From the IMG/VR virus record IMGVR_UViG_3300018031_000008, positions 1 through 50,565 of that record: a stretch of DNA of 50,565 bases; one strand, written 5' to 3'. The translations under genes and the position numbers were made by a program. The DNA comes from a virus (Duplodnaviria; Caudoviricetes). The notes below the pieces were generated by a model that worked only from the letters and a program-made list of their open reading frames with translations, was not told where the DNA came from and did not search any database. Of this stretch, positions 20,349 to 36,252 are shown in pieces. How positions within the stretch are numbered: the first letter of the stretch is position 1; every line of letters starts with the position of its first letter.

Positions 20349-20831
20349 CTAAGGGAGACGATTATCGCGTTCATCTTGTACGCGATCAGGGTCAATCACA
20401 GCGTCTTCCGCTCCCAACGCAGCGGCCCACGTCGGGACATATTTCTCTGTCGAGGACCACGGGGTGAGCGTCTCCCGATCTCCTATGAGGGTCACCCCCG
20501 CCGACGTGACGAGATACAGAGACCCTGCCGCGAGAGCCGTCAACCGGTCCCGGGCATCTGTGAGCCAACCCTCCACCCACTCGCTGGCGTTTTCTTTTTG
20601 TTGACTGAAAAATCGGCGCAGGATGCGGGCCGTGGCGAGCGTTTCGGTGATATCCTTCAAGAGGGGAGGGGACCCCGCGACAGGCACAGTATAGCGGCCC
20701 GCAATCGAGGCATGGACATCCGCCTCCGCCCGATTGATAAAGGACTCGATGTTTACAGACGTGAGAGTGGTAACCGATTTCAGAGCGGAATAGAGTTCGA
20801 GGACGCCATCTACCGTTCCATAATTAGGCAC
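20349..20831 (-). CDS. head-tail adaptor (Mu gp36/DUF1320-like)
   Basis: YGTVDGV...INRAEADVHASIAGRYTVPV...PPLLK. Confidence 0.8.
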   Translation of the reverse strand: MPNYGTVDGVLELYSALKSVTTLTSVNIESFINRAEADVHASIAGRYTVPVAGSPPLLKDITETLATARILRRFFSQQKENASEWVEGWLTDARDRLTALAAGSLYLVTSAGVTLIGDRETLTPWSSTEKYVPTWAAALGAEDAVIDPDRVQDERDNRLP

Positions 20832-20865
20832 CGTCCACTACTCACTGTGCCACTCATAGGGCAAG

Positions 20866-21129
20866 TCACTCCTTTGACGGCGTGACAACACGCTGTTCCA
20901 TACTTTTCCAGGGCTTCCCCGCATAGATCGTGGTGACACTCTGAATCAGGGAGGGCGACGAGCGCACAATGACGCCGCGCCATTTACAGATACGGCACAT
21001 CGCCCGCAAGACGCCAAAGAGATACTCACTCAACACCGTATAACAATTAGGGCAGCGCACGCGGTAGGCTTCATCCGGGGCGTGAATGTGCTGGGCCTCC
21101 TTGAAGAACGTCTCCAACTCTACGCCCAT
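20866..21129 (-). CDS. Com-like zinc-ribbon protein
   Basis: RVRCPNCYTVL...MCRICK resembles the Mu Com CxxC...CxxC spacing. Confidence 0.55.
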   Translation of the reverse strand: MGVELETFFKEAQHIHAPDEAYRVRCPNCYTVLSEYLFGVLRAMCRICKWRGVIVRSSPSLIQSVTTIYAGKPWKSMEQRVVTPSKE

Positions 21130-21130
21130 C

Positions 21131-24007
21131 TTAGGCGTACCTCCCTGTAAAGGGACTCACCGCACTTTTGGCTTGGGCGTCCAAGGAGCGGATCCAGGCC
21201 TCCACAGAGGAAAAGCGTCCCCGTCGGGCTTCCCCCGGAGCGGCGCCTGTCCCCGGCGCGGCCCCCAGAGACCAGACCGCCTCAAACCCTCGCCCGAGAA
21301 TAGCGAGCGCCTCGGAATAGTAATCGAGGCCATCTCGGGCATATAGGCTAGTATCCGCCAAAAATTCCTTTTCGTAAAGAGTTATTGCGTCCTCGCAATA
21401 TTTGACAACCTCGGGGGTCATCTGCCCCTTGTTACGTTCCAACTCGTACCGCGCGAGGTGAAGGAGATCGCGAATCCACAAAAACTTCCCCAGGGTGCGT
21501 TCGGGATACTTCCGCCGATCCGCAATCATGAGGCCAATGTTCCGTTGGAACTTCACCCGCCGTCCTTCTTCCACAAGGTACCCATCATGGGCGATGTCCA
21601 CGTCGGAAAGCACAATCGCGGGCACGACACTTTCGTTCAGAGCAGTTTCCGGATGCTCATGCACCTTCCCGAAGAAGCGTATCCCCTTACCATTGCGAAA
21701 GACCCGAATAGGAAGATCCGGCTTGAACGCATTGGGGGGGGAAGCACTAAAATGATGTTGCCGAATAGCGTACCCATTAAAACAATTGCGCCGTATGTAC
21801 TTCTCGAGGTTGGGTGCGCGGAGCAACTCTTCATCGGCATCGATCCAGATGATCCAGTCCCCTGTCGCTTCTTTGATCGAGATATTCCGCACCCCCTCAA
21901 ATCCCCAGGGTTCATGATCCGTGGAGGAGAAGTGGGCGGATTCCAATTCTTTTTCACAGGTGAGACAGTACAAGGGAGAGGGGGAGTCCAGGACCCGAGC
22001 CCCCAGACTTATAGCGAATTCCCGCGTGCGATCTGTTGAGCTACAGTCGGCCACAATAATTTCTGCGGCGAGAGGGCGAATACTGCGCAAGGCGCGAATA
22101 AGCAGCGCTTCTGCATTCTTTGTAATGATGCACGCGGAGACTGTTTGCTTGCTGGGCCGATATTTCGTCTTGGCCATCTGCGGGGCTGCCACGCTTCGCC
22201 ACAGATCCTCCCACAGGGGGCGCCAATACTTGGTCAAGACGGTAGACCAAGGAAGAGCCACAGAGGGGTCCACAATCATTTTCGCCCGCTCTTCCCGCTG
22301 CCAGGGGGAGGATTGCAGGGCGTGTACCAGTTGGGTCACAAAGTTCTGCGGAGAAGTTTTCCGCCCGTATCGCACGGTCTCCTGCAACGCCATAGTGGGG
22401 ACCACCACAGGGACAGCCCCCAATCTTTGTGCTTTGACAGCAGTCAGGCAAAACCGCTCTCCACCCGTACAAGGATAGACCCACACCGCTGCGGTGAGGA
22501 AGGGGGACAGGTCCCCCCCTGTGGTCCGGGGATGCACAACAATGCCCGGCTGGTCCATCTTGCCCACCATCAGGGTTTTCCACGTCACGGCCTCCGCATT
22601 CCCCGCTGTCAACCGATCGAAAAGATCCCATCCATACCACACATGGAGTTCGGCCTGGGTCACTTGTCGGCGGATGTCTCCCCACTTGTCCAGCAGGAAC
22701 TCTAACCCCCGATCGAACGACGAGGCATACACCATATGCGCAGGATTTCTGTCTAAGAGAACAGAAGTCTCCCAATACAGGGCGGGCAATCCGAGGGGAA
22801 TCGCCACGATTTTCTCTGGAGACACCCCCGGATTCAACGAGAGAATCTCCCGTCGGTGCCATTCGGAGAGAGCGATAATCTTGTGGAGGCGAGCTACCCG
22901 TTCAGGGGTCAACATGGAGGGATCACAGGGATCTGCTGTCCAAAACAGCAGACGTTTCGTGTTTACGGGCACATCGAGAAAGCACTTCATAGAGATGCAC
23001 ACGTCGCGAGCCTCGTCCGGGTTGAAGGCGTTGTGCGGGGCATAGTGCACTCGCGCAGGGGAGACCCATTCCCCAGAAACCTCTGCGGGGGGATTATAGT
23101 ACACCTCCGTCTCGTGTCCCTGCTGGGCCAACGTCTCCGCAAATTCCACCACCGCCTCTTCGCTCCCTCCGTAACTTTTCGAGTCTTGTGGGTTCCAGCC
23201 CCCCGCAACAGGATTAACCATAAAGGTGATCTTGGGCCGCCGGTACCAGAGAATCTGTTCTCGATGCGATGCGGGTTGAAGAATCACGTGCCCCCCCACC
23301 ACACGATCGCCAATCGCCGCCCGTAACTCCTCCTCATTCAGACACCGCACATGCTCACGCGCTTCATGTTCATTCTCGTAGTGGGGCACAGCGGTCGCGG
23401 GGGTAGTGATGTAGATCCACCCCCCAGGAGCCAGGCGCCGTTCCGCCGCACGGAGCAGGGCGACAGGGTCAGGGACATGCTCCAGGAGTTCCATAATCAA
23501 GATGGCATCCACCAATTCCGTGAGTCCAGGTTGTGAGGGATCCTGGCTCTCCGCAAAATCATTGACAAACTCACACGACAAGCCAAGCATCTGTGCGCTA
23601 TTCTGCGCATGTGCGAGAGCCGTTGCATCCAGGTCCACCCCAATCCCTCGAGCTTTGTAGGCCAAGCACAAGTGTAACAGGGCGAACCCATCGAAGCACC
23701 CCAGATCGAGAATGGTCTGTGGGGGATGCTCGGCCATCGCCGCTCGGACCTGGGCAAGACGCGGAATTCGTTGGTCCATCGTCGGAATACTCTGCGCGGG
23801 CACAAAAGTCCCGCGATGCGCCGTATAAAAGTCCCGATAGGCTTCGGGGGAGGCCAGGTGAGCAACCCACTCCTGAATCTTCTGCCGTGCTCTCTTTCCC
23901 GCCTCCTCCTCGTGGTGCGCGGCACAATACTCTTCGATCAACCGTTGGGCATCCAGAGCCCGATCTTGCCACAGCAGAGCCACAATGCTTTCAGGCGTGT
24001 GTGCCAT
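21131..24007 (-). CDS. tri-domain SAM methyltransferase + GT-B (GT4-like) + GT-A (GT2) protein
   Basis: ILDLGCFDG and ELLEHVPDP (MTase); YGGSEEA, YASSFDRGL, ERFCLTAVKAQ (GT4-like); VSACIITKN, WIDADE, FFGKVHE, IAHDGY (GT2). Confidence 0.9.
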   Translation of the reverse strand: MAHTPESIVALLWQDRALDAQRLIEEYCAAHHEEEAGKRARQKIQEWVAHLASPEAYRDFYTAHRGTFVPAQSIPTMDQRIPRLAQVRAAMAEHPPQTILDLGCFDGFALLHLCLAYKARGIGVDLDATALAHAQNSAQMLGLSCEFVNDFAESQDPSQPGLTELVDAILIMELLEHVPDPVALLRAAERRLAPGGWIYITTPATAVPHYENEHEAREHVRCLNEEELRAAIGDRVVGGHVILQPASHREQILWYRRPKITFMVNPVAGGWNPQDSKSYGGSEEAVVEFAETLAQQGHETEVYYNPPAEVSGEWVSPARVHYAPHNAFNPDEARDVCISMKCFLDVPVNTKRLLFWTADPCDPSMLTPERVARLHKIIALSEWHRREILSLNPGVSPEKIVAIPLGLPALYWETSVLLDRNPAHMVYASSFDRGLEFLLDKWGDIRRQVTQAELHVWYGWDLFDRLTAGNAEAVTWKTLMVGKMDQPGIVVHPRTTGGDLSPFLTAAVWVYPCTGGERFCLTAVKAQRLGAVPVVVPTMALQETVRYGRKTSPQNFVTQLVHALQSSPWQREERAKMIVDPSVALPWSTVLTKYWRPLWEDLWRSVAAPQMAKTKYRPSKQTVSACIITKNAEALLIRALRSIRPLAAEIIVADCSSTDRTREFAISLGARVLDSPSPLYCLTCEKELESAHFSSTDHEPWGFEGVRNISIKEATGDWIIWIDADEELLRAPNLEKYIRRNCFNGYAIRQHHFSASPPNAFKPDLPIRVFRNGKGIRFFGKVHEHPETALNESVVPAIVLSDVDIAHDGYLVEEGRRVKFQRNIGLMIADRRKYPERTLGKFLWIRDLLHLARYELERNKGQMTPEVVKYCEDAITLYEKEFLADTSLYARDGLDYYSEALAILGRGFEAVWSLGAAPGTGAAPGEARRGRFSSVEAWIRSLDAQAKSAVSPFTGRYA

Positions 24008-25100
24008 TCTCTCCTCCGATGGTGTCCACTATCTGTTCCCACTGCTCCGCAACGCCATCCCAGTCAAGCCCTTTCGCATGGAGCAGACCCGCCTGTGAGG
24101 CCCGAGTCCAGGCAGCCTCATCCCGCAACAAGTGGAGGCAGGCGTCCACAAATTTTTCCTGATAAACAGAGTCTGCCGCGCCTTTCCCCTCTTCCCAGGG
24201 GATAAGAACACCTGCGTCGGGGTGTAAGGTCTCCGGCAACGCGGCCAACTGCGACCCCACGAAAGGCAATCCACAGGCCATCGTTTCCATTGCACTGATA
24301 CACGAAATCTCCTCAAACGAAGAGGGGTAGATGTACAGTGCGGCGGTTTTGTACAGCTTATACAAATCCTTTTTGTTGAGGGCCCCCAGATGACGGACCC
24401 GCCCCCCAAAGTAATTGATGAGAGCATGACACTTCTCGTAGAGCGGGCGGAGTTGGTCTGTGTAATTGTCATACCCTCCCAGATACAGGCGAAGATCGGG
24501 ATCTTTTTGCAACAGACGCGGGAAAGTCTGTTCGAGGAGAATCTCCAACCCTCGTTCCGGGCGAGCCGTAAAGACAAGAGCCTTCCGATCGCGCACCGTG
24601 ACAGGGGGGGGCACGCTCGCAATCAACTCGAGATCTACGCCATTGCGCGTCACCGTGAAGGCGGCATCCGGCAAGCCATAGACTTCTTGATATTGCCGCT
24701 TCATAAACTCGGAGAGCACCAACAGGCGATCCACGCTCCACATAACACCACGAATGGGATCCCCATAGCGTTTGAGGGCCAAATCGTGCATCCACCAGAG
24801 GCGTACGCCTGAGAGCAGAGGAACAGTCAGAGGGTGGGGCACCCGCTGAATCACCGTCACATCGTGGGGGGTTTTCAACGCCCACTCCAAAAAGCGATCT
24901 ACCCGGATAAAGTGCACCCGATCATAAAAGAGACCTTCTTTGGGGCACCGGCAGAAGAGATACACTGTGTGCCCGCGCTTGGCTAAGGCCCGAGCGACAC
25001 AGAGACCTGCGGTCTCAGACCCTCCAACCGACTTCGTCTCGTAGACCTCGGGATCGAGGGGCATTCCTTCGACAAAAAACACCCAACTGAGAGGATCCAC
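23991..25100 (-). CDS. GT-B glycosyltransferase (GT4-like)
   Basis: VGGSETA, WMHD, RNGVD, TARPERGL, YPSSFEEISCISAME. Confidence 0.9.
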   Translation of the reverse strand: MDPLSWVFFVEGMPLDPEVYETKSVGGSETAGLCVARALAKRGHTVYLFCRCPKEGLFYDRVHFIRVDRFLEWALKTPHDVTVIQRVPHPLTVPLLSGVRLWWMHDLALKRYGDPIRGVMWSVDRLLVLSEFMKRQYQEVYGLPDAAFTVTRNGVDLELIASVPPPVTVRDRKALVFTARPERGLEILLEQTFPRLLQKDPDLRLYLGGYDNYTDQLRPLYEKCHALINYFGGRVRHLGALNKKDLYKLYKTAALYIYPSSFEEISCISAMETMACGLPFVGSQLAALPETLHPDAGVLIPWEEGKGAADSVYQEKFVDACLHLLRDEAAWTRASQAGLLHAKGLDWDGVAEQWEQIVDTIGGENGTHA

Positions 25101-25138
25101 AATACACTTTCAGGGCCACTGCGGGCACGGCGCGAAAA

Positions 25139-25258
25139 CTACATCCTATTCAGTTTAACCAGCAACATGCCAAAAGCGACGAATCCGGCCAACGACCAAA
25201 ACATGAGGCCAAAGGCCGTTGCGTACATTACCCATGGGGGAAACACCGGAGCGCACAT
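25139..25258 (-). CDS. 39-aa membrane peptide
   Basis: AAGGAG RBS; MCAPVFPPWVMYATAFGLMFWSLAGFVAFGMLLVKLNRM. Confidence 0.45.
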   Translation of the reverse strand: MCAPVFPPWVMYATAFGLMFWSLAGFVAFGMLLVKLNRM

Positions 25259-25272
25259 AGATTCTCCTTTCC

Positions 25273-26085
25273 TCAACCACTCGCAACCACCTGTCCGTGC
25301 TTCCATCCCCCTAAATCGGATTCCTTAAACTGAATATAGGCCTCCCGACTCACGGCTGGATGTCGCGCTAGCACCTCAGGATGATCTTTCCACTTCTCAC
25401 GGAACCGTTCACCGTCGCGCATCTCTACTTCAGTATCTTCCGCACTCGTGAAGCTGTCTCGCCTGCTCTGTTTATCGAGATGGCAGATAGGCAAATCTGC
25501 CACCCTGGCCGGCAGAAGGGTCGTGTCTTGTTGCTCACTCGCTTTCACAATGAGACGTTCCACATAATCCGTATCCCCAAAACAGACATAGAAACGGGGA
25601 TCAAACCACCCCACTTCTTCACGCAACCTCGGCCAATCCATGAGCACGCAAGCCCCGTTATACCCTGGGTGAAGAGGGAGAACTGTGGGGATCTTCGCTA
25701 AGTGAGGCAGGGCCGCTAAGCCCGTGACCACATCCGGACCCACAAAGGCTTGGCGCTTCTCCTGAAAAATACGCTGTAAGGCCGGCACCACTCCTGGCCC
25801 AAGGAGCACATCGGAAGTGAGCACGAGCACGCTCTCACTGCGGGAAAGAGCCAGCCCCCGATTCACCGAAGCCCACACCCCAATGTTTCTCTCGTGGACA
25901 ATCACCTGATGCCGCGCGAGGTTCTGGACATGGGCCAAGATTGGTCGTATCTCGGGGTCCGTCGAGCAATTGTCTAAGACCACGACGGAGGCAATCTCTT
26001 TCGAGAATCCAAAGGCCCAAAAAGAGGTGAGGGCCAGCCACAAGGACACAGGAGCATTCCTCACGGGCATAATGACATCTATCAT
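25273..26085 (-). CDS. GT2 glycosyltransferase
   Basis: IDVIMPVRN, VLDNCSTD, NRGL, LTSDV, VGWFDPRF...FGDTDY. Confidence 0.88.
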   Translation of the reverse strand: MIDVIMPVRNAPVSLWLALTSFWAFGFSKEIASVVVLDNCSTDPEIRPILAHVQNLARHQVIVHERNIGVWASVNRGLALSRSESVLVLTSDVLLGPGVVPALQRIFQEKRQAFVGPDVVTGLAALPHLAKIPTVLPLHPGYNGACVLMDWPRLREEVGWFDPRFYVCFGDTDYVERLIVKASEQQDTTLLPARVADLPICHLDKQSRRDSFTSAEDTEVEMRDGERFREKWKDHPEVLARHPAVSREAYIQFKESDLGGWKHGQVVASG

Positions 26086-26450
26086 GGGGGGTCTCCCTCC
26101 TTTATGGGGGGCTCGGGGAAGTTCGTCTCCAGAGCATAACCAGCCCCCCGCACCTCACTCAATTCGCCCATGAATGTCAATGGCCCTGACCCTTCAGGGA
26201 GCTGGAGAATCAAACGATCCGCGATCCCATAGACCACCCTCTGGAGGCGCTGTCGAGCCGCGAGATCCTTCTGCCCACTCGCGTTAAATTCGGCCCACAT
26301 CACAAGGATACGCAATTCGTGGATCGTGATCCTCACCGCCACTTTCTTGTCCAGGTCTGCGGGGATTCCCTCATCCCCACACTGGGGGCATGCCTTGAGT
26401 TCAGGATTAGGCTCGACTTCGTGAGAACAATGGAGACAGAGCCAACTCAT
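26082..26450 (-). CDS. hypothetical zinc-ribbon protein
   Basis: CLHC...CPQC; ATGA coupling on both sides. Confidence 0.65.
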   Translation of the reverse strand: MSWLCLHCSHEVEPNPELKACPQCGDEGIPADLDKKVAVRITIHELRILVMWAEFNASGQKDLAARQRLQRVVYGIADRLILQLPEGSGPLTFMGELSEVRGAGYALETNFPEPPIKEGDPP

Positions 26451-27259
26451 TGCAGCTTCCCTGGCTGTAGCAGGGTTCCCTCTGTGTCTTTTTCTTCGAC
26501 ACCGCTGGGGGGCACCCTCACATGCTGTTCCTCCGCAATCGCCTGCAGAATTTCTGTGGGAATCACTCCCAGCGCCATGTCGCCGTACTCGCCAATGAGA
26601 ATTTTCGCCTCATGGAGACGGGTCTGATCGTGGCGTTCTTTCTGGTAGTACGAGGAGGTCGCACCCCACCGCGCCCGATCCCCCTGCTCCCACGGAGGGA
26701 GATCGTCGCGCAGAAACGGTTCTTTCGTGTGTTGCACCATCGTGGTGCCACACAGGACGAGGCGCCACCCCGCCGCGCGACACTGCAGGGACATCGCGAC
26801 ATCGTCCAAGTAGGTAATCCGAGGGTCATAGTGCGGGCGCCACGCGAGAGAGTAGAGAATACAGAACCCGAAACACGTGACCATCTCCGCCGTTTTTCCG
26901 TGTACCAGAGCATCTTGCAGCGGGGTGAACCCATCCTTCGTTTCCATCGGATTGATCATTCCCACTTGATCAATGCTCCACGCAGTGGCCATAAGATCCC
27001 GCAACCATCCCGCAGACACGATAGTGGTGTCATCCTCCAATATCACAACGTGACTGTATCCGCGTTGCTCGGCCCACGTAAAGACTCGTTGGCGCTTTTC
27101 TCCTCGCGGGAGAGCGGGACTGACCTCTAAGCGAAGGGCGAAAGACATCCCCGCATCCACCGTTCGCAGAGATTCGAGGCATCGCTTCAGTAAAGGATTG
27201 CTCTCTTCCCCGTGGCGAGAAGCAATGCCCACCGCGACACCCCCCCGCTCCCGTGTCAC
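26447..27259 (-). CDS. GT-A fold glycosyltransferase (GT2-like)
   Basis: VILEDDT DxD-type motif, GWLRDL, GFCILY, YLDDVAMSLQCRAAGW. Confidence 0.75.
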   Translation of the reverse strand: MTRERGGVAVGIASRHGEESNPLLKRCLESLRTVDAGMSFALRLEVSPALPRGEKRQRVFTWAEQRGYSHVVILEDDTTIVSAGWLRDLMATAWSIDQVGMINPMETKDGFTPLQDALVHGKTAEMVTCFGFCILYSLAWRPHYDPRITYLDDVAMSLQCRAAGWRLVLCGTTMVQHTKEPFLRDDLPPWEQGDRARWGATSSYYQKERHDQTRLHEAKILIGEYGDMALGVIPTEILQAIAEEQHVRVPPSGVEEKDTEGTLLQPGKLQ

Positions 27260-27486
27260 AGCTGCAACCTCACTGTCGCAGGGAAATTCTCAAAGGTCAG
27301 CTTCTCCTTGCAGTCGTCACAGAGGAGTCGGTTGTGACCAGAGTGCTGTATATCGTTGAAGTAGATCACCAGCCACCCCTCGGGAATCGCCGCATATCGT
27401 AAAGGGGAAAGAATATCTTGAGAATAGGTGTGGTTATCCTCTTTCCCACAGCCGTCGCACCGACAAACGATGTGATGCGTAATCAT
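27256..27486 (-). CDS. small zinc-finger protein
   Basis: CDGCG...PEGW...LCDDC; GGAGG RBS. Confidence 0.65.
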   Translation of the reverse strand: MITHHIVCRCDGCGKEDNHTYSQDILSPLRYAAIPEGWLVIYFNDIQHSGHNRLLCDDCKEKLTFENFPATVRLQL

Positions 27487-27507
27487 ACAGTACCCTCCAT
27501 CGTCGAA

Positions 27508-27681
27508 TCAGAGTGCTGTATATCCATGCCGATCACAGCGCAACACCCCCTCCGTTAATGTCCACCCCTCCAAGAGGTGAGGAACAGGCCCAGCACTAGG
27601 CAGTACTCCGGTGTATTCGTACTTCTCACTTTTCTGGATTCCGCACTCGTCACACGCGTAGGTGACACGCAATTCGATCAC
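27508..27681 (-). CDS. small zinc-finger protein similar to 27256-27486 (not in ORF track)
   Basis: MIELRVTYACDECG...LEGW...LRCDRH; GTGA overlap with upstream stop. Confidence 0.55.
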   Translation of the reverse strand: MIELRVTYACDECGIQKSEKYEYTGVLPSAGPVPHLLEGWTLTEGVLRCDRHGYTAL

Positions 27682-27893
27682 AGATCCTCCGCTTTTAATT
27701 CCCCCGTACCTTTAAGCTCTCCGAATCCTTTAGCTAGATCTCGCGCAAAACCTGTCTGCAGGAATACCTCTTCTATTGTTAGTCCTAACTGCCCGCACGC
27801 CAAGCACCTCTTACAAGTAGGACAAGTATTAGGATACCAACAGCAGGTACAAATACCCGATTTTGTCCCTCCGCAATCGTTGCAGTTTATCAT
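27678..27893 (-). CDS. small Cys-rich protein
   Basis: Multiple CxxC; coupled to neighbours. Confidence 0.55.
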   Translation of the reverse strand: MINCNDCGGTKSGICTCCWYPNTCPTCKRCLACGQLGLTIEEVFLQTGFARDLAKGFGELKGTGELKAEDL

Positions 27894-28129
27894 GACCCAT
27901 GTTCATCCACACGCTCCCACGCGAGGGGAGAATAAAACATAAGGCATTCCCCGCCCAAATAAGGTATGGTAACTTTCCGTGTAAAATAGTATTCCCCTTG
28001 CTCGTCCACAAACTTTTCCCCCTCAGTAAGCCCCCACTCACAACACAACGTGGGCACACGTTGAACAACTCTGTATGTTGCTCCCACCTCTACGCGAGCA
28101 ATCACACGGTGCCCATCGTCGCGGGGCAT
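27890..28129 (-). CDS. hypothetical protein
   Basis: Fills operon gap; start uncertain. Confidence 0.5.
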   Translation of the reverse strand: MPRDDGHRVIARVEVGATYRVVQRVPTLCCEWGLTEGEKFVDEQGEYYFTRKVTIPYLGGECLMFYSPLAWERVDEHGS

Positions 28130-28890
28130 ACATGCCCTTGCATGATAGGAGTGGTCGGATGTGTTTCCCTATACCCACACTTTGGGCAGATCATGGGGTA
28201 GATCATCTCAAAAGACTCCACGTCTTCAGGTGTTCCGAGACTCTTGAACTCGTCCACGTTCACCGCCTTCACTTTCGCCCCGTACCGTTCGATCACTTCG
28301 TTGTATGTCGGCGCAAGGTAGAACTCCCCCCTGATCCGGTGATTCTGTGCGATAAGGATACAGCACGCGTCCACGAGATCCTGAGCATGCCGCCACCAGT
28401 AAAATCCCACAGTAGCCTTAACGGATATGGGCTTCTTCTCGGCAACTTCTGTGATCCACCCATCCACTTCTCGTACATAGCTCCACCGATCCCCCTCGCC
28501 CCGGAATGTGAGGACATATCCATCCCATTTTTCCTTCAGCGCCTGTTCCTGCAACGCCTCCAAATCATGACGGAACCACTGATCGGCGTTCATCACGGCC
28601 ACTGGCTCCCCCGGGGGCAATGCGAGAGCAGCGGCCAAGACAGTGCACGCAGCGCCCTGGGTGGGGCCCCAGAGGAAAAACGAGAAAAGGTTGCGTTTAT
28701 TCCCAATAGGGCCACATCCGTGTATTTCGTTGCTGTTGAGCACCAGGTGAATATTCCACTCGGGGGGTATAGGATCAAGAGCCCACTCGATCATGTGTCT
28801 GCCCCCGATCTTGATAAGTGGCTTGGGCACAGTATACCCCGCCTCCTTAAACCGCCTGCCGGCACCCGCCATAGGAACGATGAGGTGCAT
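28102..28890 (-). CDS. sugar-phosphate/phospho-substrate nucleotidyltransferase (NTP_transferase family)
   Basis: IVPMAGAGRRF..AGY..PKPLI, TQGAACTVL, NADQ, VAEKKPIS, GEFYLAPTYN, LGTPED. Confidence 0.9.
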   Translation of the reverse strand: MHLIVPMAGAGRRFKEAGYTVPKPLIKIGGRHMIEWALDPIPPEWNIHLVLNSNEIHGCGPIGNKRNLFSFFLWGPTQGAACTVLAAALALPPGEPVAVMNADQWFRHDLEALQEQALKEKWDGYVLTFRGEGDRWSYVREVDGWITEVAEKKPISVKATVGFYWWRHAQDLVDACCILIAQNHRIRGEFYLAPTYNEVIERYGAKVKAVNVDEFKSLGTPEDVESFEMIYPMICPKCGYRETHPTTPIMQGHVCPATMGTV

Positions 28891-28936
28891 TGTCATTCCT
28901 CCTCGTCTCGTTGGCATGTTTCACAAACTTTGCGCA

Positions 28937-29398
28937 TTAGGTCTGCTCCACGAGCTTTGCCCGCCCCTTCTGCTCTGCCTGTGCAAAACATTCGGGGCAG
29001 AGGGCATAGCCTGTTTTTGTGCTGATGTACGCCTCCCCAGCATTAAAGATCTTCTCACAGAGCACATTCGAACAGACGGTCGTGGGGGGTTCAGCACAAA
29101 GTAAAGGACTCTCATTTGCGTGCTGGACCGTGAAAGGAACGTCTCGGCGAATGTTCAATTCGAGAACATGAAAGAGATATCCTAGCGGATCCGGAGACTC
29201 CACTATTTCGTGATACGGAATAGTAACGAGTTTATAGTATACCCGATTCGACGCATCGCACCGAAACACCATGGTAAGGAGAACCACCTTGTGGTTTTCA
29301 TCAAAGCACTGGGAAAACCCTATGATGTCGGGGTAGAGATGTTGAAGGCGGGCAAACATCTCCTCTATCGCAAGTCTGGGAAAGGGAAAGGTCACCAT
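28937..29398 (-). CDS. hypothetical protein with C-terminal zinc finger
   Basis: CSNVLC...CPEC; overlaps HAD stop. Confidence 0.6.
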   Translation of the reverse strand: MVTFPFPRLAIEEMFARLQHLYPDIIGFSQCFDENHKVVLLTMVFRCDASNRVYYKLVTIPYHEIVESPDPLGYLFHVLELNIRRDVPFTVQHANESPLLCAEPPTTVCSNVLCEKIFNAGEAYISTKTGYALCPECFAQAEQKGRAKLVEQT

Positions 29399-30063
29399 GA
29401 GACAATCTCCACGTGAGAATGCTCGCCCACCGCCCTGTGGATTCTCGGGAGGAGAGCGAGGGTCACCTCCTCAGGCCCCGCGACAGAGACTAGCCGGCAC
29501 CTCGCTGCCAACGCCGAGGCCTTCCCTGGCTCGGAGTCCTCGACAACGACAAGATCGCACGGAGAAATTTGAAAACGCATCGCCGCCTCCAGGTACATCC
29601 CTGGATCCGGCTTTGGGGGGGCGTCTTCGTTGGAAAGATAGAATTCGGTGAAGTCCAACAATCCCGAGAAGAGCAGCATCATTCGCACGGACTCTCGCAC
29701 CGCATTGGAGCAGACGGCGATCCTCCATCCCGTCACTTTCAACTCCGAGAGGAGATCACACTTGCCCTTCTCGGGGCGTAATTCTTTGATGGCCTCAACC
29801 GTATAGTGCTGCTTTATGGAGGCCAAGTACTGCACGGTGTCTCCCAGAACTCTTCCGCGATTGGGGATTCGCCCTTGATCCAGAAGCATCCTCAATTTTA
29901 CTCGTGTGGGTAACCCTTTGAACACCGTATGATGCTCCTCGGGAGTAATCGTCGCATGCGGGCCATACCCTTGGAGGGCGTCGTTAAGCGCCTGAAAGTG
30001 CAAAAAATCACAATCACACAGGACCCCGTCAAGGTCGAAAGCAATGTATTTCTGATCTTTCAC
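29392..30063 (-). CDS. HAD-superfamily phosphatase (beta-PGM-like)
   Basis: FDLDGVL, VCSNA, PKPDPGMY, VEDSEPG. Confidence 0.9.
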   Translation of the reverse strand: MKDQKYIAFDLDGVLCDCDFLHFQALNDALQGYGPHATITPEEHHTVFKGLPTRVKLRMLLDQGRIPNRGRVLGDTVQYLASIKQHYTVEAIKELRPEKGKCDLLSELKVTGWRIAVCSNAVRESVRMMLLFSGLLDFTEFYLSNEDAPPKPDPGMYLEAAMRFQISPCDLVVVEDSEPGKASALAARCRLVSVAGPEEVTLALLPRIHRAVGEHSHVEIVSW

Positions 30064-30407
30064 GCCCCCTCCCCCCGTGGCACAACGTGAAGAGGGGTCT
30101 CCTCCGGGATGCCCGCTGAGGCATACGTGGCCAGGAGAGAGTTATCCAACAGGACATGCTCACGATCAATATGAAAGTCCGCGACCAGACGGCCCACGGG
30201 ATAGCGTTGGTCAATCCATTTCTTGTAGGCATACACGTCGGGCATATGGGCCCGCACAATGGCATCTATCTGACTCACCGTATTCATGTCGTGAAAAAAG
30301 GCGTAGATGGTGACAATGGTCCCCCGAGGAATGAGGAGATCGGAGACTACTGCTCCAGAGGACTCTTTCCTTTTCTGCCACTTACGGAGTAGGGAAAACA
30401 GCCACAT
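30060..30407 (-). CDS. hypothetical protein
   Basis: GTGA coupling with HAD; likely start MWLFS. Confidence 0.55.
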   Translation of the reverse strand: MWLFSLLRKWQKRKESSGAVVSDLLIPRGTIVTIYAFFHDMNTVSQIDAIVRAHMPDVYAYKKWIDQRYPVGRLVADFHIDREHVLLDNSLLATYASAGIPEETPLHVVPRGEGA

Positions 30408-30409
30408 GG

Positions 30410-30733
30410 TTACCCCCGCACTGCAGACACTTTTTCGTTCCGCTTCTCCGCGAGTTCCATCAGGGTCACCGGTCTGACAACACAGTCGCAGCACAAAAAC
30501 ACTTCCTCCATGAGTTCTTTGTGATCCTCCTCGTCCATGGCAACCGCCACCGCGTCCACAGTGGGAGCAAAGACCTCGGCGAGGGCGAGGGATCCCCCCC
30601 AACACTGTGTCAAACCCAACACCTGGTTAGTGGCCTGTGGCTTAAACACGGCGATGGAGAATCTCGCCACATAGAACGCTGGGGCAATTCTCCCCCCACA
30701 GGCATCGCAGGGGCGTATCTCCGATAGCTTCAT
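30410..30733 (-). CDS. hypothetical zinc-binding protein
   Basis: CDAC...CCDC; AAGGAG RBS. Confidence 0.65.
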   Translation of the reverse strand: MKLSEIRPCDACGGRIAPAFYVARFSIAVFKPQATNQVLGLTQCWGGSLALAEVFAPTVDAVAVAMDEEDHKELMEEVFLCCDCVVRPVTLMELAEKRNEKVSAVRG

Positions 30734-30817
30734 AGGGTCTCCTTATTTTTCCCCACTCACACAAAATCTCCACTCGTTGCATCCAGGAGAAAGGGCGATT
30801 GCCAAGTAAGGGAGCGC

Positions 30818-31258
30818 TTACGACTCTTCGGCATTCGTCGCCTTCTCCGCCCGTTCCTGTTCCTTCTCCCACTCCTCGAGTCTGTTCAGCTCTATTCTGC
30901 GGAGTGTGGCCTCTAACTCTTCGCGTTGCTGGACAGTCGCCGCCACAATGCGTACAGACTCCACATCCTCAGGTCGGAACATCTCCGTGAAAGGTGCGCG
31001 TCTCGGTGTGAGGCGCGAGGTTACCCCCCAGGGACCTGTGTGCACGATCACGTGCATTCGTCGGTGCATCCAGGGGACAACATAGTGGTAGAAAAAGTAT
31101 TCCGCTTCGTCGTAGCGGGGGAGAAAGAGCACTGCGCCCAACCTTCCCCGTCGCTGCAGATAGAGGGCGAACCGATTGTTCGCAAAGGCGGCCTTCTCCT
31201 GTCGCCGCCGTCGGTGTGTATCGTACCGTGTCAAAATCCAATCTATCACTGAGGACAT
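30818..31258 (-). CDS. hypothetical protein
   Basis: AAGGAG RBS; C-terminal coiled coil. Confidence 0.6.
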   Translation of the reverse strand: MSSVIDWILTRYDTHRRRRQEKAAFANNRFALYLQRRGRLGAVLFLPRYDEAEYFFYHYVVPWMHRRMHVIVHTGPWGVTSRLTPRRAPFTEMFRPEDVESVRIVAATVQQREELEATLRRIELNRLEEWEKEQERAEKATNAEES

Positions 31259-31481
31259 AGCAATTCTCCTTTATCTACCCGTTCTCCTTCGGTAGGAGTT
31301 CCCTCCCTCTCAAATGCCCTATTTCCCAGGGGATTCTACTCTCCCCATCAAATTCTCTGGGATAGCCACTGCCCATTGATGCACACCCAAAACTGCCGCC
31401 AACAGGCGCATCCAGGGAGGTGGTGTGCGAAACAGTACGCGATCTGTAGGAGAAGGCCCGATGGCCCAGTGATTATCTTAA

Positions 31482-32267
31482 TCATTTTCCCCCCTTCCCG
31501 TCTTTCTGTGCCCACACCCACAGCCACCCGTCGGGTTTTCCCGTTTCCCGCCGCTCCCACGACACCGCCGCTGTGTCCATCTCCGTGCGCCATGTCTCGT
31601 GCACAGTGAACCCCACCTGCGGGAGATAGCCCCCAATCTCCTCCTCGGTGCACACAACGTCGGGGGCGGTGTAGAGATCGGGGGTCCCTCGCTCAAACCA
31701 GCGGATGTGCTTCCCCGAATCGTCCGCGTTCAATTGCACCAGGAGGTGCCCTCCCGGACGAAGGACGCGGGCAAACTCCCGGAAGTACCTATGGCGCACG
31801 GGGAAAAACTGGATATGCTGCAAGGCAATCGTCGAAACCACCACGGAGAAACTTTCTGGGGGGAAGGGGAGGCTCCCATCTCCCGGAATGGCGACGAAGG
31901 TCGCTCGAGGGACAATCTGGGCCGCACGAGCCAAGGCCCTTCGGCTCACATCTACGCCCACAACGTGCCCGACACGATGGATAAGACAGTAATCCCAGAC
32001 CACTCGCGTCAGCCTGCCGATACCACAGGCAAAATCGAGCACGCTGTCATGATCTTTTATGACTTTGTGAAGTGAGGGCCGAACAATTCTCTCCTGCAAC
32101 GCCATGTGGCCAGACAAGTTCCCCACCAGCGCTTCGGGATCCACACTTTCACAGTAGGCGCGGCAGACGGTGGCGTATTGGGTAATCTCCTCCTCCGTCG
32201 CGTCGGCCAGGCGGGAAATGAGGGCATCCGGGGCGAGATTTTCTTTGATCACAACGTCACTCTCCAT
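31482..32267 (-). CDS. class I SAM-dependent methyltransferase (Methyltransf_11/25-like)
   Basis: VLDFACGIGR, GVDVS, LPFPPESF, LQHI, ARVLRPGG. Confidence 0.9.
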   Translation of the reverse strand: MESDVVIKENLAPDALISRLADATEEEITQYATVCRAYCESVDPEALVGNLSGHMALQERIVRPSLHKVIKDHDSVLDFACGIGRLTRVVWDYCLIHRVGHVVGVDVSRRALARAAQIVPRATFVAIPGDGSLPFPPESFSVVVSTIALQHIQFFPVRHRYFREFARVLRPGGHLLVQLNADDSGKHIRWFERGTPDLYTAPDVVCTEEEIGGYLPQVGFTVHETWRTEMDTAAVSWERRETGKPDGWLWVWAQKDGKGGK

Positions 32268-32931
32268 GCAGCCTCCTAACCCACCAAATCTGGTCGGGAC
32301 CGTTCTCGAGGGGCCCCCACGCAGGCTGATGGGTGGCCACCCAGGTGGTGACAGGTTCGCGCACGGTCCCCTGCTCCCTATCGTGCCCACAGAGGATCCC
32401 TCCCCGTTTTACCCGAGGTCCCCACGCGTCCAGATCGGCGTGCACCGCCTCGCGGCTGTGATCCCCATCGAGAAACACGAGATCACACGACAGAGGAGGG
32501 AAAAATTCTGCCACCTGGGGAGAGGAACCCACGAGGCCCACCACTCGATCCCCGACCCCCGCGCGGGCCACATTCCGACAGAACTCTTGAAGAGTTTCCG
32601 TGAGAACGTCTGTGCGCTGAAGGAACCGCTGGAGGCGTTCCAAAGCGGGGGATCCCGTCTGCCCATCGGAGGCCTGAAAAGTGTCCACGGCAATGACCCG
32701 GGGCCCCCCTAACGCGAGTGCAATGGCTTTCCCGCCTACCCACGTTCCGACTTCTACGGCCAGACCCTCTCCTCCAATTTCCACACCCCGTGCGTGCAGC
32801 CATCCCACGGTAGAATCCTGGGACAGCTGGTGAATCCCCGAGAGGCACTGCGCCACCTGGAGAGAGAGGGCCTCTGCAAGTTCAGAGAGAGGCTGCGGGC
32901 GGGATACAGCGGTGTTAGGCATCATGTTCAT
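32257..32931 (-). CDS. class I SAM-dependent methyltransferase (Methyltransf_24-like)
   Basis: VEVGTWVG, AVDTF, VFLDGDHS, VKRGGILCGHD. Confidence 0.88.
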   Translation of the reverse strand: MNMMPNTAVSRPQPLSELAEALSLQVAQCLSGIHQLSQDSTVGWLHARGVEIGGEGLAVEVGTWVGGKAIALALGGPRVIAVDTFQASDGQTGSPALERLQRFLQRTDVLTETLQEFCRNVARAGVGDRVVGLVGSSPQVAEFFPPLSCDLVFLDGDHSREAVHADLDAWGPRVKRGGILCGHDREQGTVREPVTTWVATHQPAWGPLENGPDQIWWVRRLHGE

Positions 32932-33377
32932 TAGGGTCGTGTGACTCCCACGTGCCGATAGGGGGCCATGAGGAACATCCGTGTCCGCCTGTCGTCCGTC
33001 GTCGGGTCCGTTCCCCCCGCCCAAAAGACGCCGTTCCCTGTCAGGGTCTCAATACGCATCGCCAGCTGAATATGATCCCACCCCGACGCGACGTGCCAGA
33101 GTTGAGTCACCCCCACAGCATACCCCGCCAGAATGGCGTACTTGCGTGGAGTGCCCACCACAATAACACTATTCACCGCAAGGCTCATGCGGCAGCGCAC
33201 GGGCAACTGGCCTCCTGTTTCCGCCAAGTCCCCCGTGAGGACAACACAATTATCCCCTGGGCTTCCATCATTCTCCAAGTACAACCCGTTGCGCACCCAA
33301 TCTGGCTGTACGGCCCACTGTATCCCGCTAAAGGCACTCAAAAAAGGAAGAGGTCCTGTATCATAGCGCTGTGTCAT
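32931..33377 (-). CDS. hypothetical beta-rich protein
   Basis: TAATG coupling to the methyltransferase. Confidence 0.6.
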   Translation of the reverse strand: MTQRYDTGPLPFLSAFSGIQWAVQPDWVRNGLYLENDGSPGDNCVVLTGDLAETGGQLPVRCRMSLAVNSVIVVGTPRKYAILAGYAVGVTQLWHVASGWDHIQLAMRIETLTGNGVFWAGGTDPTTDDRRTRMFLMAPYRHVGVTRP

Positions 33378-33387
33378 GGCTCTCTTC

Positions 33388-33479
33388 TCAGGTCCACCAG
33401 GGGTCCTCCAGAAACAGGGTCGCCTCTTTCTTCAGGAAAGACCCCAAGAAGCAGGGGAAATCTGTGCAAATGCCGTCTG
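33388..33479 (-). pseudogene. diverged duplicate of the 3' end of the GDPD-like gene
   Basis: DGICTDFPCFLGSFLKKEATLFLEDPWWT* versus DGICTDFPGLLKSFLSVESPLFPENPWWN* at 33856-33947; no in-frame start. Confidence 0.8.
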
Positions 33480-33499
33480 AAGGGCAAGAGCATCTGTGA

Positions 33500-33856
33500 T
33501 CATCGAGACCCTCTAGCAAAATCACTCTCTTGAATAAACCGCCAGCCCGCTACTCCCGCAGCGCTCTGATCATCCGACGCCCCGCTTATGCCAAGAATAT
33601 TCCCCACCATAACATAGTCCTCCGCAGGGACATACATTTTGACCTGAGCCAAAAACTCTGCCTTGCCAATGCCTACGTTGAAGAAAGAAAACAGATAATG
33701 CCATCCGTTCACATATCGCGTGACAACGCCCCAATTTCCGCATAACCCAAGGATATGACCAGCCTTGCTTAGTTCGATTAAATCAACAAATGTAATGGGG
33801 CCCCCCGAAATCTCCAACGTCTCATCCACATCAAAAGCATAAATTTTCCTTTGCAT
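33500..33856 (-). CDS. small capless HAD-like phosphatase
   Basis: YAFDVDETL, MVGN...SDD; TAATG coupling. Confidence 0.75.
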   Translation of the reverse strand: MQRKIYAFDVDETLEISGGPITFVDLIELSKAGHILGLCGNWGVVTRYVNGWHYLFSFFNVGIGKAEFLAQVKMYVPAEDYVMVGNILGISGASDDQSAAGVAGWRFIQESDFARGSR

Positions 33857-34566
33857 TAGTTCCACCAGGGATTCTCCGGAAACAAGGGAGACTCTACGCT
33901 GAGGAAAGACTTCAAGAGCCCAGGGAAATCTGTACAGATGCCGTCTGCCTCTCGCCACTGATCCCACACCGCAAGAGTGAGCGGACGATCATGCAGTTCC
34001 GGACTGACAACGTAGGCCGCCTTCCCCGCAGCATGCACTTGCTCAATCACAGCCGCCGTCACCCAGTCTCGCTCAAAGGCGTCCAGCCAAACCCCGACAC
34101 CCAGAGAATTATGCAACACGGAGAGGAGACTTTCTTCGGGTTTGTCCGAGGCCCTGAGAAGGATAGGCACACCCGTCGCGAGAAGAGAGTTCTGTGTCGC
34201 ATCTCCACAGAAGTCCCAATCAAAGAGAACAGATTTCTGGCGCAGGCCGACATCAGGTGCGGAATGCGTATCGAGGAACTCGGCAAGAAGGGGGACAGCA
34301 GCAACCTCTTTGATGTTCCAGAAAATGCGCGACGCCTTGGCGAGGGCGGGGAGAAGGCGATCCACACGATAGGACACATCCTCCGGACCGTGGGCCACTA
34401 TCAACACACCCCGGGGAGACAGCACCTTAGTGCCCCAATACCTCACGCGAACATCAATCTCGAGGCCATGATCCGCCTGGGCCGCCGCGTGAAACGCCTC
34501 CACCGTGTTTTGTTGGCGAGGGTCGGGCCACCACACACCCCTGTGAGAGATAGGCAAGGCTCTCAT
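33856..34566 (-). CDS. glycerophosphodiester phosphodiesterase / PI-PLC-like TIM barrel
   Basis: ISHRG..QQNTVEAF, GLEIDVR, NIKE, VWLDAF, VSPELH, DGICTDFP. Confidence 0.8.
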   Translation of the reverse strand: MRALPISHRGVWWPDPRQQNTVEAFHAAAQADHGLEIDVRVRYWGTKVLSPRGVLIVAHGPEDVSYRVDRLLPALAKASRIFWNIKEVAAVPLLAEFLDTHSAPDVGLRQKSVLFDWDFCGDATQNSLLATGVPILLRASDKPEESLLSVLHNSLGVGVWLDAFERDWVTAAVIEQVHAAGKAAYVVSPELHDRPLTLAVWDQWREADGICTDFPGLLKSFLSVESPLFPENPWWN

Positions 34567-34577
34567 GAGACACCTCC

Positions 34578-34725: not shown

Positions 34726-35730
34726 TTACGCGATCACGCTGCCCACGACGGAGGCGAAGTTCTTCCCCGTGATCTTCTCATCCTGGTAGAACCCAATCTC
34801 GAGAATCTCGCCCTTCAGCCGCCGATCAAACCCATAGTTCTCGACGACCAAGTTCGGCAGTCCCGGACGGGCCCAGCGGAAGCTGTACCCATACGAGGGG
34901 CGGTCTTTCGCCACGGTAGGCGGCGCGTAGTAGACGAGGGCATGGGGCCCCCAGATATCCGACAGCGACTGCGCCAACCCTTCCGCTGCCGTGTTCTTCA
35001 TCGTGCCCCCCACCAAAACCTCCTCAAAGTCAAACAGCGCTTTGACATGGTTCATGTTGGGGATCCCGGGGCCCGCCACCGCATTCGCGGCGGGGAACAG
35101 CACCTTGCGGACTTCTGTGTTCAGCTTGAAGTACCGCCACGCCTGCCACCCAAAGACAATGCGGTTCGGGGTGTACCCTGTCACGCCCCGGACCTGTTCC
35201 TTCGCCCGATCAATATCGAGCAACGGATTGGAGTTGACCGTGTCACTCCACAAGCTGGTGGCCGAGGTCCACGTGGACACATTGGCACTGTTAATCACCA
35301 ACGTCGCCACACGATCTTCCCAGTCCAAGGTCAACAGGTCTTGGACAAACATGGACTTCGACTGCCGGAGGTTGAGGACCTGGTCGGCATTGGTGAGATC
35401 CTCCAGGCTCACCCCCGTCGCGAGAGCGTAGTTTTTGGCAAAGTACGTCCCCGTGGACACGTTGAGATCCACCATCTTGGCCATCGTCAACGGGGAGCGT
35501 TTGGTATCCGGAATGCGCCACAGATCCGCCTGCGTGAACTCATAGTACATGTCGGACTGTTTCGCCACGTCCACGATGGGGAACACCATATCCACAATGC
35601 TCCCCGCCGGGCGGTAGTTGATGAGCAAGTCTGCTAACGGGCCGTCAATGTGGACGTCGCGGCCCGTCGCATCGTATCCGTGCAGCTCGGTGATCGAGCC
35701 ATCCGGATTCACGAGCTTCAGCGTTCGCAC
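34726..35730 (-). CDS. major capsid protein (HK97 fold, lambda gpE-like)
   Basis: DVHIDGPLADLLINY, VFPIVDVAKQSD, WSDTVNSNPLLDI, PNRIVFG, PSYGYSF; follows decoration gene. Confidence 0.9.
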   Translation of the reverse strand: MRTLKLVNPDGSITELHGYDATGRDVHIDGPLADLLINYRPAGSIVDMVFPIVDVAKQSDMYYEFTQADLWRIPDTKRSPLTMAKMVDLNVSTGTYFAKNYALATGVSLEDLTNADQVLNLRQSKSMFVQDLLTLDWEDRVATLVINSANVSTWTSATSLWSDTVNSNPLLDIDRAKEQVRGVTGYTPNRIVFGWQAWRYFKLNTEVRKVLFPAANAVAGPGIPNMNHVKALFDFEEVLVGGTMKNTAAEGLAQSLSDIWGPHALVYYAPPTVAKDRPSYGYSFRWARPGLPNLVVENYGFDRRLKGEILEIGFYQDEKITGKNFASVVGSVIA

Positions 35731-35760: not shown

Positions 35761-36195
35761 TTAGTTCGAGTTCACAACAGAGAACAGGCCCTTGGTCAAC
35801 ATCTCCACGATGCCCCCGGAGGCCACCGTGTCCAGAGCCTGTGCGACCAGCACAATCCCCGATCCGGGGTTCGTAAAGGCGTTGCTCCCCGACAGGGTGC
35901 TGGTTTGAGGGACCGCCCGTGCCCCCGGGATAAAGAATCCCGACCGCACGGTCAGAAGGTCTCCCCGGGTAATCGCCAACCCTGCCACCCCCTTGGTAAT
36001 CCCCAGGTAGATGACAGTCGCGTGCTCCAACGAGTTAGGCTTATTCTGCAGGGCGCCGATGTACGTCTGCTCGCGCCCCCCACAGAGGTTCACCCGTCCA
36101 TTGGAGTCGAGCAACAGCGCCTTAAACTGGTGCGTTCGCAAATCAATCGCCGATTCGAACGTCCAGGTTAAGGCCTCTCCCGACTTTTCGGCCAT
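35761..36195 (-). CDS. head decoration / capsid cement protein (DUF2190-like)
   Basis: GALQNKP, GITKGVAGLAITRGDLL, AQALDTVASGGIVEML. Confidence 0.8.
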   Translation of the reverse strand: MAEKSGEALTWTFESAIDLRTHQFKALLLDSNGRVNLCGGREQTYIGALQNKPNSLEHATVIYLGITKGVAGLAITRGDLLTVRSGFFIPGARAVPQTSTLSGSNAFTNPGSGIVLVAQALDTVASGGIVEMLTKGLFSVVNSN

Positions 36196-36252
36196 GAGAT
36201 GGCCCTTTCCTGCCACACCGGGCACAGCGGACGTCTCCGTTGTGGAGACGGT

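Follow-up and report, generated by a model that had tools for sequence, protein, structure and literature searches.

Predicted virion glycosylation genes in the head operon of an uncultured tailed phage: a capsid-linked core and an accessory module

Results

An enzyme cassette between the capsid and adaptor genes

The window analysed here, IMG/VR record IMGVR_UViG_3300018031_000008, is the entire 50,565-nt contig of a tailed phage (Caudoviricetes), in which almost every recognised gene lies on the minus strand. Its gene set comprises terminase, Mu-like portal and protease, capsid, adaptor, neck, tube, tape measure, a J-like tail protein, amidase, helicase, and a Mom-family gene, whereas neither an integrase nor a DNA polymerase was detected among the 63 non-cassette open reading frames (ORFs) scanned. 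The subject of this study is a 13.7-kb cassette, bounded by the major capsid gene and the Mu gp36-like adaptor gene (Table 1), which an original prediction, made from the sequence alone, had read as a glycosylation and methylation pathway for the virion. The cassette genes are all on the minus strand, as the prediction had it, and most junctions show start-stop overlaps. The enzyme genes account for ~9.6 of the 13.7 kb (~70%, from summed ORF lengths), the remainder being small ORFs without recognised function, whose positions are not kept in the relatives. The maximal 19-residue hydropathy in the cassette is 1.68, indicating that no protein reaches the transmembrane level and that the enzymes are all soluble.

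Domain searches recovered the five predicted glycosyltransferase (GT) domains, two of GT4 and three of GT2 type, four of them by Pfam and the one in GT2b by its fold. The predicted NTP transferase, hereafter the nucleotidyltransferase (NTase), and the three S-adenosylmethionine (SAM) methyltransferase (MT) domains were likewise identified by Pfam, and the GDPD-like enzyme was identified by a structure model, with no match in Pfam. Of the two predicted HAD enzymes, the HAD-IA protein was confirmed by Pfam and NCBIfam, while the second is recognised by its motif only.

Two freshwater-sediment sequencing runs contain 98% and 94% of the sampled window words, the first being possibly the source of the record; no RNA data set was listed as containing them. 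Across 19500-37000, every one of the 30 bins is represented in contigs of the second run, no differences being listed, and these contigs also span both the capsid-GDPD and the fusion-adaptor junctions, indicating that the assembly is sound. The gene order of the cassette was found again in related phages and is therefore not a product of chance. The window has no terminal repeat; the public version of the contig is 21 nt longer, which may represent a trimmed circular overlap. The host label 'Ca. Methylomirabilis' was not adopted, as it rests on one 2.6-kb binned contig and the capsid relatives bin with many phyla.

Table 1. Features of the cassette and its surroundings in window coordinates. 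Loci in other genomes are designated by L and a number.
Feature	Coordinates	Strand	Evidence and remarks
Tail tube protein	18242..19207	-	Pfam; second candidate acceptor by analogy with mycobacteriophages (PMC11600133, PMC12619734)
Head-tail adaptor (Mu gp36-like)	20349..20831	-	Pfam, PHROG; downstream boundary
87-aa zinc-ribbon-like ORF	20866..21129	-	Kept near adaptor/terminator genes in L002, L009, L010
958-aa fusion: methyltransferase, second GT4 (E-x7-K), GmaR/SunS-like GT2 (WIDADE)	21131..24007	-	Pfam, NCBIfam, PDB search
GT4	23991..25100	-	Pfam; orthologous to the GT4 with which the GT4-MT-GT2 fusion of the family begins; E-x7-E motif intact
GT2a, GT-A glycosyltransferase	25273..26085	-	Pfam
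GT2b, divergent GT-A glycosyltransferase	26447..27259	-	GT2 folds in ESM Atlas, TM 0.63-0.69
Sugar-phosphate-type nucleotidyltransferase (NTase), 262 aa, single domain	28102..28890	-	GxGxRF..PK and EK motifs; closest solved structure 4EVW
HAD-IA (beta-PGM/PGP-like) phosphatase	29392..30063	-	Pfam, NCBIfam
Small unknown ORFs (146, 107, ~144 aa)	30060..31258	-	
Class I SAM methyltransferase (MT2)	31482..32267	-	Pfam; start set by ribosome-binding site
Methyltransf_24 SAM methyltransferase (MT24)	32257..32931	-	Pfam; likely start 32931, longest ORF from 33024; best PDB match 6G7D
Unknown 148-aa ORF	32931..33377	-	No homolog in fetched loci
Small HAD-motif (DxDxT) ORF	33500..33856	-	ATG overlaps GDPD stop; E=1 match to phosphomannomutase
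GDPD-fold phosphodiesterase-like enzyme	33856..34566	-	Model pLDDT 91.6, matches GDPD TIM barrels; conserved H8, E36, D38, H59, K86
Major capsid protein (lambda gpE-like HK97 fold)	34726..35730	-	PHROG major head E 2e-59; HK97-fold model; candidate acceptor
Small gene upstream of capsid, probable head decoration/cement	35761..36225	-	phrog_673 E 1e-5, PHROG label scaffolding; candidate acceptor

The fusion protein carries a GmaR/SunS-like GT2 domain

The GT2 domain of the 958-aa fusion gave four PDB matches, namely GmaR (22AO, E 4e-18), 7MSK, and SunS (7MSP and 7MSN), and nothing else. Its W-x-D-x-D-E and R-x-F-R-N...F-x-G-x-V-H-E motifs align with those of GmaR and SunS over ~200 residues, and its DxD motif is intact, as in GT-A domains of the GmaR/SunS type. 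GmaR glycosylates the flagellin of Listeria. SunS glycosylates peptides (NCBIfam family description), and the SunS peptide S-glycosyltransferase family is the best NCBIfam match of the phage domain, at 48.9 bits and thus below the cut-off of 350; on this score, the domain is a relative of SunS and not SunS itself. The confinement of the PDB matches to GmaR, 7MSK, and SunS is the strongest pointer to a protein acceptor, and the domain is likely a protein-priming enzyme. It is widespread, with 490 protein clusters at 50% identity matching at E<=1e-30, most of which have no genomic context.

The core cassette is linked to the capsid gene in related phages

Relatives were collected by a capsid-alignment scan, which yielded 80 viral loci (the best 80 of at least 113 confirmed) and 15 genome loci, whereas a single-sequence capsid scan of viral contigs had found nothing. 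For the comparison of the capsid-adaptor interval, three loci from NTase scans were added to these 95 capsid-centred loci; some of the loci are duplicates.

GT4, MT, and GT2 domains lie between the capsid and adaptor/neck genes in 39 of the 40 loci that span both, so that the synteny comparison called for by the original prediction shows the core to be kept. Of the 85 loci that extend 1.5 kb or more beyond the capsid gene on its downstream side, 83 had a GT or MT match. The core, consisting of a GT4, a methyltransferase, and a GmaR/SunS-like GT2, is linked to the capsid gene in relatives that are binned with many phyla; phage-encoded soluble GTs, together with an O-methyltransferase and tied to structural genes, are one feature of phage virion glycosylation systems. 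The usual form in the family is one GT4-MT-GT2 protein of ~970-1000 aa; the window has a stand-alone GT4 and an MT-GT4'-GT2 fusion. In L102 (L102:13764-19436), the GT4 domain of the fusion contains an intein, and inteins usually mark a conserved, needed protein.

In six cultured phages whose capsids are only distantly related (25-28% identity), no GT is annotated within 3.5 kb on either side of the capsid gene; gp102 of Arthrobacter phage Ottawa, located between capsid and adaptor, was considered and is not a GT. Among the interval ORFs scanned in relatives, 7 of 63 encode lectin or beta-helix fibre-like proteins, suggesting that the interval is a slot for head decoration. Radical SAM genes repeatedly adjoin the GT fusion in this slot (L198, L230, L232, L250, and L010).

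These distributions bear on the alternative that the enzymes glycosylate a host protein or surface glycan, such as flagellin, pilin, S-layer, or lipopolysaccharide (LPS), and thereby bring about a superinfection block or serotype conversion. GmaR-type enzymes do act on flagellin, the bacterial homologs of the accessory module described below are found in LPS/O-antigen loci, and at least one relative, L251, is likely a prophage because it lies inside a 982-kb Deltaproteobacteria scaffold. However, no membrane GT, flippase, or GtrABC-like gene was found, an integrase is absent among the non-cassette ORFs scanned, and the tie of the core to the capsid gene across relatives of many phyla fits a phage substrate better. 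The cassette also shows no excess of promoters (6 found versus 6.2 expected), which is a weak test, the promoter/terminator scan being uninformative. A host-surface role is considered unlikely.

Genes of the accessory module

The accessory enzymes accompany the core in a subset of the phages. The GDPD-fold protein has a TIM barrel with the catalytic His pair and the E-x-D metal site, at a similarity below Pfam detection. The small HAD-motif ORF that overlaps it has no homolog in the fetched loci and a low GC content at third codon positions (GC3, 0.47); it was probably inserted recently, and its family assignment is uncertain. GT2b had no Pfam or NCBIfam match at E<=0.01, and GT2a and GT2b show no detectable relation to each other. 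The third methyltransferase domain, in addition to MT2 and MT24, is the N-terminus of the 958-aa fusion.

MT24 is likely a sugar O-methyltransferase, as suggested by its best PDB match, 6G7D, a mycobacterial enzyme of this kind. One contrary sign is its PHROG family label, 'DNA methyltransferase' (E 6e-12), which would accord with a cassette that glycosylates or methylates the phage DNA against restriction or CRISPR, as would the GT4 domains, since the T4 DNA glucosyltransferases have the same GT-B fold as GT4. In contrast, no hydroxymethylase, TET/JBP, thymidylate synthase, DNA polymerase, or cytosine DNA methyltransferase was matched in the scanned ORFs, among which remote homologs are possible, and without a match to an enzyme for hydroxymethyl bases a sugar would have no handle on the DNA. 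DNA protection is apparently served by the Mom-family gene (834-1616) in the replication region. DNA modification by the cassette is thus very improbable.

The 17 PDB matches of the NTase are sugar-phosphate nucleotidyltransferases and IspD, with no phosphocholine cytidylyltransferase among them, and its profile also matches the GDP-mannose pyrophosphorylase 7WHS (E 6.5e-7). The EK motif favours a sugar phosphate as the substrate.

The original prediction had modelled the cassette on the flagellin glycan operons of Clostridioides difficile (CD0240-0244) and Pseudomonas aeruginosa (PA1088-1091), with a possible phosphodiester in the glycan. In C. difficile, the phosphodiester bond is made by the TagF-like FtaD from CDP-N-methylthreonine, and FtaA is a PSP/ThrH-like HAD (bioRxiv 10.64898/2026.02.12.704994, PMC10714395). 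The phage cassette departs from this model in both respects: no TagF-like, LicD, or Stealth phosphotransferase domain was detected in the cassette ORFs of at least 60 aa scanned (Pfam/NCBIfam), and the HAD-IA protein belongs to the beta-PGM/PGP group, none of its 25 NCBIfam matches being a model of phosphoserine phosphatase or ThrH. The fold class of the NTase is nevertheless compatible with phosphodiester chemistry, because CD0242, which models on 7WHS (PMC10714395), and the phage NTase both match this structure; FtaB and the phage NTase fall into a common fold class including 7WHS, as compared via structure matches.

A variant of the phosphodiester model would be a virion glycan whose substituent is attached through a phosphodiester, as on the type A flagellin of C. 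difficile, and for which the HAD and NTase make a CDP-alcohol or CDP-amino acid, a methyltransferase methylates it, and the GDPD-fold protein replaces FtaD. The model survives only if the GDPD-fold enzyme itself is the phosphotransferase. The same broad families (protein GT2, HAD, NTase, and MT) are present, and the GDPD-fold protein keeps its catalytic His/Glu/Asp set; enzymes of the GDPD family can transphosphorylate. Conversely, the NTase keeps the sugar-binding EK motif and lacks a cytidylyltransferase match of the phosphocholine type, and two spare GT-A enzymes travel with the module. This variant, which overlaps the virion glycan pathway favoured below, appears improbable.

The accessory module travels as a unit

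GDPD, HAD, GT2a, GT2b, MT2, and MT24 were all found in the same one of the 95 capsid-centred loci, indicating that these genes travel together. NTase and GDPD alignment scans revealed the NTase-HAD-GDPD trio in the same slot of seven other phages (L002, L008/L269, L009, L010, L093, L102, and L271), where L010 has no capsid gene at its edge and L008/L269 stops before the fusion. The trio phages occupy three places on a capsid tree of 94 sequences, and nine cassette-labelled NTases fall into one clade of 13 among 118 sequences with a support of 0.998 (L010 and L093 were left out of this tree by the start-motif filter). These results indicate that the module moves or is lost as a unit. The module order, with GDPD first, followed by HAD-NTase, GT2a, and the fusion, is kept although the capsids are only 29-61% identical, and the extra GT4 domain of the fusion is also found in the trio phages. 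Some of them additionally carry an epimerase, C-methyltransferase, radical SAM, or second NTase gene, as expected for variable glycan loci.

Among the 55 NTase loci flanked by 5 kb or more in each direction, a HAD was found in 49 and a GDPD in 18 (>40 bits), the latter an undercount because short GDPD-like genes score lower, whereas neither occurred in any of the 93 control capsid loci. NTase-HAD and NTase-GDPD fusions exist, and one GDPD relative is grouped with NTase, kinase, HAD, and class II aldolase genes. The bacterial copies of the module adjoin wzm/wzt, WavE, O-antigen ligase, or GT41/TPR genes. On a Rhizobium plasmid (L004:4795-8502, NZ_CP072149.1), and on plasmids of several Rhizobium strains, GDPD-HAD-NTase genes with three NTase domains follow an erythritol-type catabolic operon. 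The erythritol and class II aldolase contexts are a circumstantial hint of ketose phosphates.

Cyanophages and other large viruses commonly encode HAD-NTase fusions, in many cases accompanied by a short GDPD-like gene (L003; many large viral contigs, L012-L085). GT2b also occurs outside the cassette, between portal and protease (L009:1934-2755, L270:1416-3260, and L271:4437-5234), and in L270 has a long insert, possibly an intein or endonuclease.

Another possibility is that the core alone acts on the virion, and that the accessory genes merely reside in a hotspot for insertions with strong expression, as passengers serving host metabolism or a small molecule. The interval is full of non-conserved small ORFs and varies among relatives (radical SAM, SDR, epimerase, and C-methyltransferase genes), and the module on the Rhizobium plasmid follows a catabolic operon and not glycan genes. 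The constant module order across divergent capsids, the single clade of the cassette NTases, and the additional GT4 domain shared by the trio phages argue otherwise, and this explanation seems quite unlikely.

Candidate acceptor proteins

The window capsid offers candidate sites in a Ser/Thr-rich loop (residues 147-168) and at Ser331 near the C-terminus. Over the family, the last five capsid residues are 44% Ser/Thr compared to a background of 13% (85 unique, related ends), and a Ser precedes the last Val in 33 of the 34 listed capsids of the window's subclade. What this subclade keeps is one Ser, located two to five residues before the C-terminus. In mycobacteriophages, glycans have been reported at the C-termini of capsid and tube (PMC12619734). 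The small gene upstream of the capsid gene is also present there in relatives. In L188, L190, L203, and L207, which have the same SunS-like GT2, the capsids end in Cys (or Cys-Ala), a possible S-glycosylation site.

Other genes of the window

The Mom-family DNA modification gene (834-1616, minus strand) lies beside the helicase gene and overlaps a tRNA-Gly(TCC) prediction at 1389-1465, so that the tRNA call is doubtful. Further minus-strand genes encode an SPFH/Band 7 protein (82-864), a cold-shock domain protein (47174-47515), and a 629-aa Mu-like protease/scaffold (36253-38142) with a Cys-rich insert that weakly matches HiPIP (E 0.008, residues 196-232); the length of the protease ranges from about 400 to 980 aa in relatives. 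The 1745-aa J-like tail protein (8758-13995, minus strand) has a Laminin_G_3 lectin domain and a GC3 below that of other structural genes. The 146-aa ORF of the cassette has a homolog in L002 that sits elsewhere, before the protease gene.

Discussion

The genes and their folds, the fixed place between capsid and adaptor, and two layers of differing distribution are what is observed at this locus. As judged from the sequence, the phage probably encodes a pathway that puts a methylated, branched glycan on virion proteins, in which the GT2 would prime and the module would supply a predicted self-made, unusual donor for extension or capping.

First, upon late expression, the soluble GmaR/SunS-like GT2 would use a host NDP-hexose or HexNAc to glycosylate Ser/Thr residues of the capsid protein and perhaps also of the decoration or tube protein. 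Second, the core GT4 would extend this sugar and a methyltransferase would cap it, these three activities forming the family core. Third, the NTase, HAD phosphatase, and GDPD-fold enzyme may turn a host sugar phosphate into an unusual NDP-activated donor, for which a ketose or another rare sugar is the most plausible, if speculative, candidate. The donor sugar and others would then be added by GT2a, GT2b, and the second GT4, and the two further methyltransferases would finish the glycan. Such a variable coat might shield the particle or alter what it sticks to. The virion glycan with a self-made donor, as originally predicted, gains partial and indirect support from the GmaR/SunS-like GT2, the capsid linkage, the soluble enzymes, and the finding of no DNA-base or lysogeny genes among the ORFs scanned, whereas its phosphodiester part is not supported.

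Several observations weigh against this pathway. The location of the genes in a late operon is compatible with more than one substrate. The V-[NGT]-S-[SA] tail that most relatives have is missing from the window capsid, and the other phages with the module likewise have no Ser-rich tail; 12 of the 85 capsid ends, some from GT-bearing phages, contain no Ser/Thr in the last five residues. Compared to the six GT-less cultured phages, a small control, the Ser/Thr enrichment is modest, at 33% versus 25% for loop 147-168 and 33% versus 17% for the C-terminal end, with 13% in both for the whole protein. In L259, the capsid gene abuts the adaptor gene without any GT, by loss or mis-assembly, yet the capsid keeps a Ser-rich tail. 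In the second GT4, Lys replaces the second Glu of E-x7-E, and the domain may be altered. Finally, among 50,697 phage records, the GT2 domain matches only SPbeta SunS and unannotated fragments (10 records), with no other cultured phage carrying it.

A more specific proposal, which is possible but doubtful, is that, in a subset of a large uncultured phage family, the module is swapped in and activates a ketose, or a sugar without the usual 1-phosphate route, by an undescribed step: the NTase would make an NDP-sugar ester, the GDPD-fold enzyme would shift the phosphate to the anomeric carbon via a cyclic phosphate, and the HAD would trim the product, while capsid glycosylation would be a core assembly step carried out by a flagellin-type GT. 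If so, particles would bear interchangeable glycan 'serotypes', and the uncharacterised three-gene module of bacterial surface-glycan loci would be accounted for.

What is new in the favoured virion pathway is a GmaR-like, putatively priming enzyme that stays with the capsid gene throughout a family, together with a mobile module predicted to make its donor. In a literature search, outside whose scope most subscription journals lay, neither this phage group nor a head operon with an NTase-HAD-GDPD module was found described, and in the literature found, virion glycosylation is described only for mycobacteriophages. If the pathway operates as proposed, a broad aquatic and sediment phage family uses virion glycosylation as a core morphogenesis step, and some members make their own rare donor and swap glycan modules as bacterial O-antigen loci do. 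The compact, all-soluble set can be rebuilt in E. coli, and would supply protein glycosyltransferases for decorating particles.

Comparison with known systems

The C. difficile FgtA/FtaABCD (CD0240-0244) and P. aeruginosa PA1088-1091 operons share with the cassette a protein GT2, a HAD, an NTase, and a SAM methyltransferase in one operon. Unlike FtaABCD, the phage has no TagF-like FtaD, its HAD is beta-PGM-like, and it adds a GDPD-fold enzyme and four further GT domains. GtrABC serotype conversion combines a membrane GT and a flippase in a temperate phage, an arrangement not found among the ORFs scanned here.

The phage NTase family is presumably akin to the N-terminal domain of BcbE (cd04183), and neither HAD matches TIGR01689, the BcbF model of the EcbF-BcbF family in NCBIfam. 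BcbE/BcbF/BcbG of the Pasteurella multocida type B capsule and E. coli KfoE likewise combine an NTase-like protein with a HAD and add fructose as a side branch (PMC13552107), but the phage NTase is a 262-aa single domain, and identity with this fructosylation system was rejected on the HAD result. A blastn search of the module DNA against 20,395 E. coli records gave no match. A link to xylulose was also dropped as unsupported, nucleotide-precursor genes not having been found in the relevant O-antigen clusters according to PMC7685785, and the literature search found no link between wavE and fructose.

The closest counterpart of the module is bacterial and uncharacterised, consisting of NTase, phosphodiesterase, and HAD genes (with a second NTase, cupin, and WavE in some cases; 4EVW family, Pseudomonas pMRCP2, Azospirillum AZO_p6, and Scandinavium pSg66741_1). 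It contains adjacent homologs of all three phage genes at 28-41% identity. The bacterial module usually has at least two NTase domains and WavE, whereas the phage has one NTase and GT2a/GT2b instead.

The fusion GT2 shares the GT-A domain motifs of Listeria GmaR (22AO), SunS, and 7MSK. Unlike these, it is the C-terminal domain of an MT-GT4-GT2 fusion in a head operon, and no flagellin or glycocin precursor was recognised near it.

F1-cluster mycobacteriophages carry their GTs close to the genomic 3' end (PMC11256854), so that a location among the structural genes, which the original prediction gave for some actinobacteriophages, is not common to every known case. No homology to mycobacteriophage GTs was seen in the GT2-domain search of the 50,697 phage records. 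Mycobacteriophages (Che8 of cluster F, and cluster O with an O-methyltransferase and three GTs) are likewise tailed and encode several soluble GTs and an O-methyltransferase, with the capsid and tube as likely acceptors near the C-terminus (PMC11256854, PMC11600133, PMC12619734). The present phages differ from them in forming an unrelated uncultured group, in having a GmaR/SunS-like putative primer fused to GT4 and MT domains, and in carrying the NTase-HAD-GDPD module.

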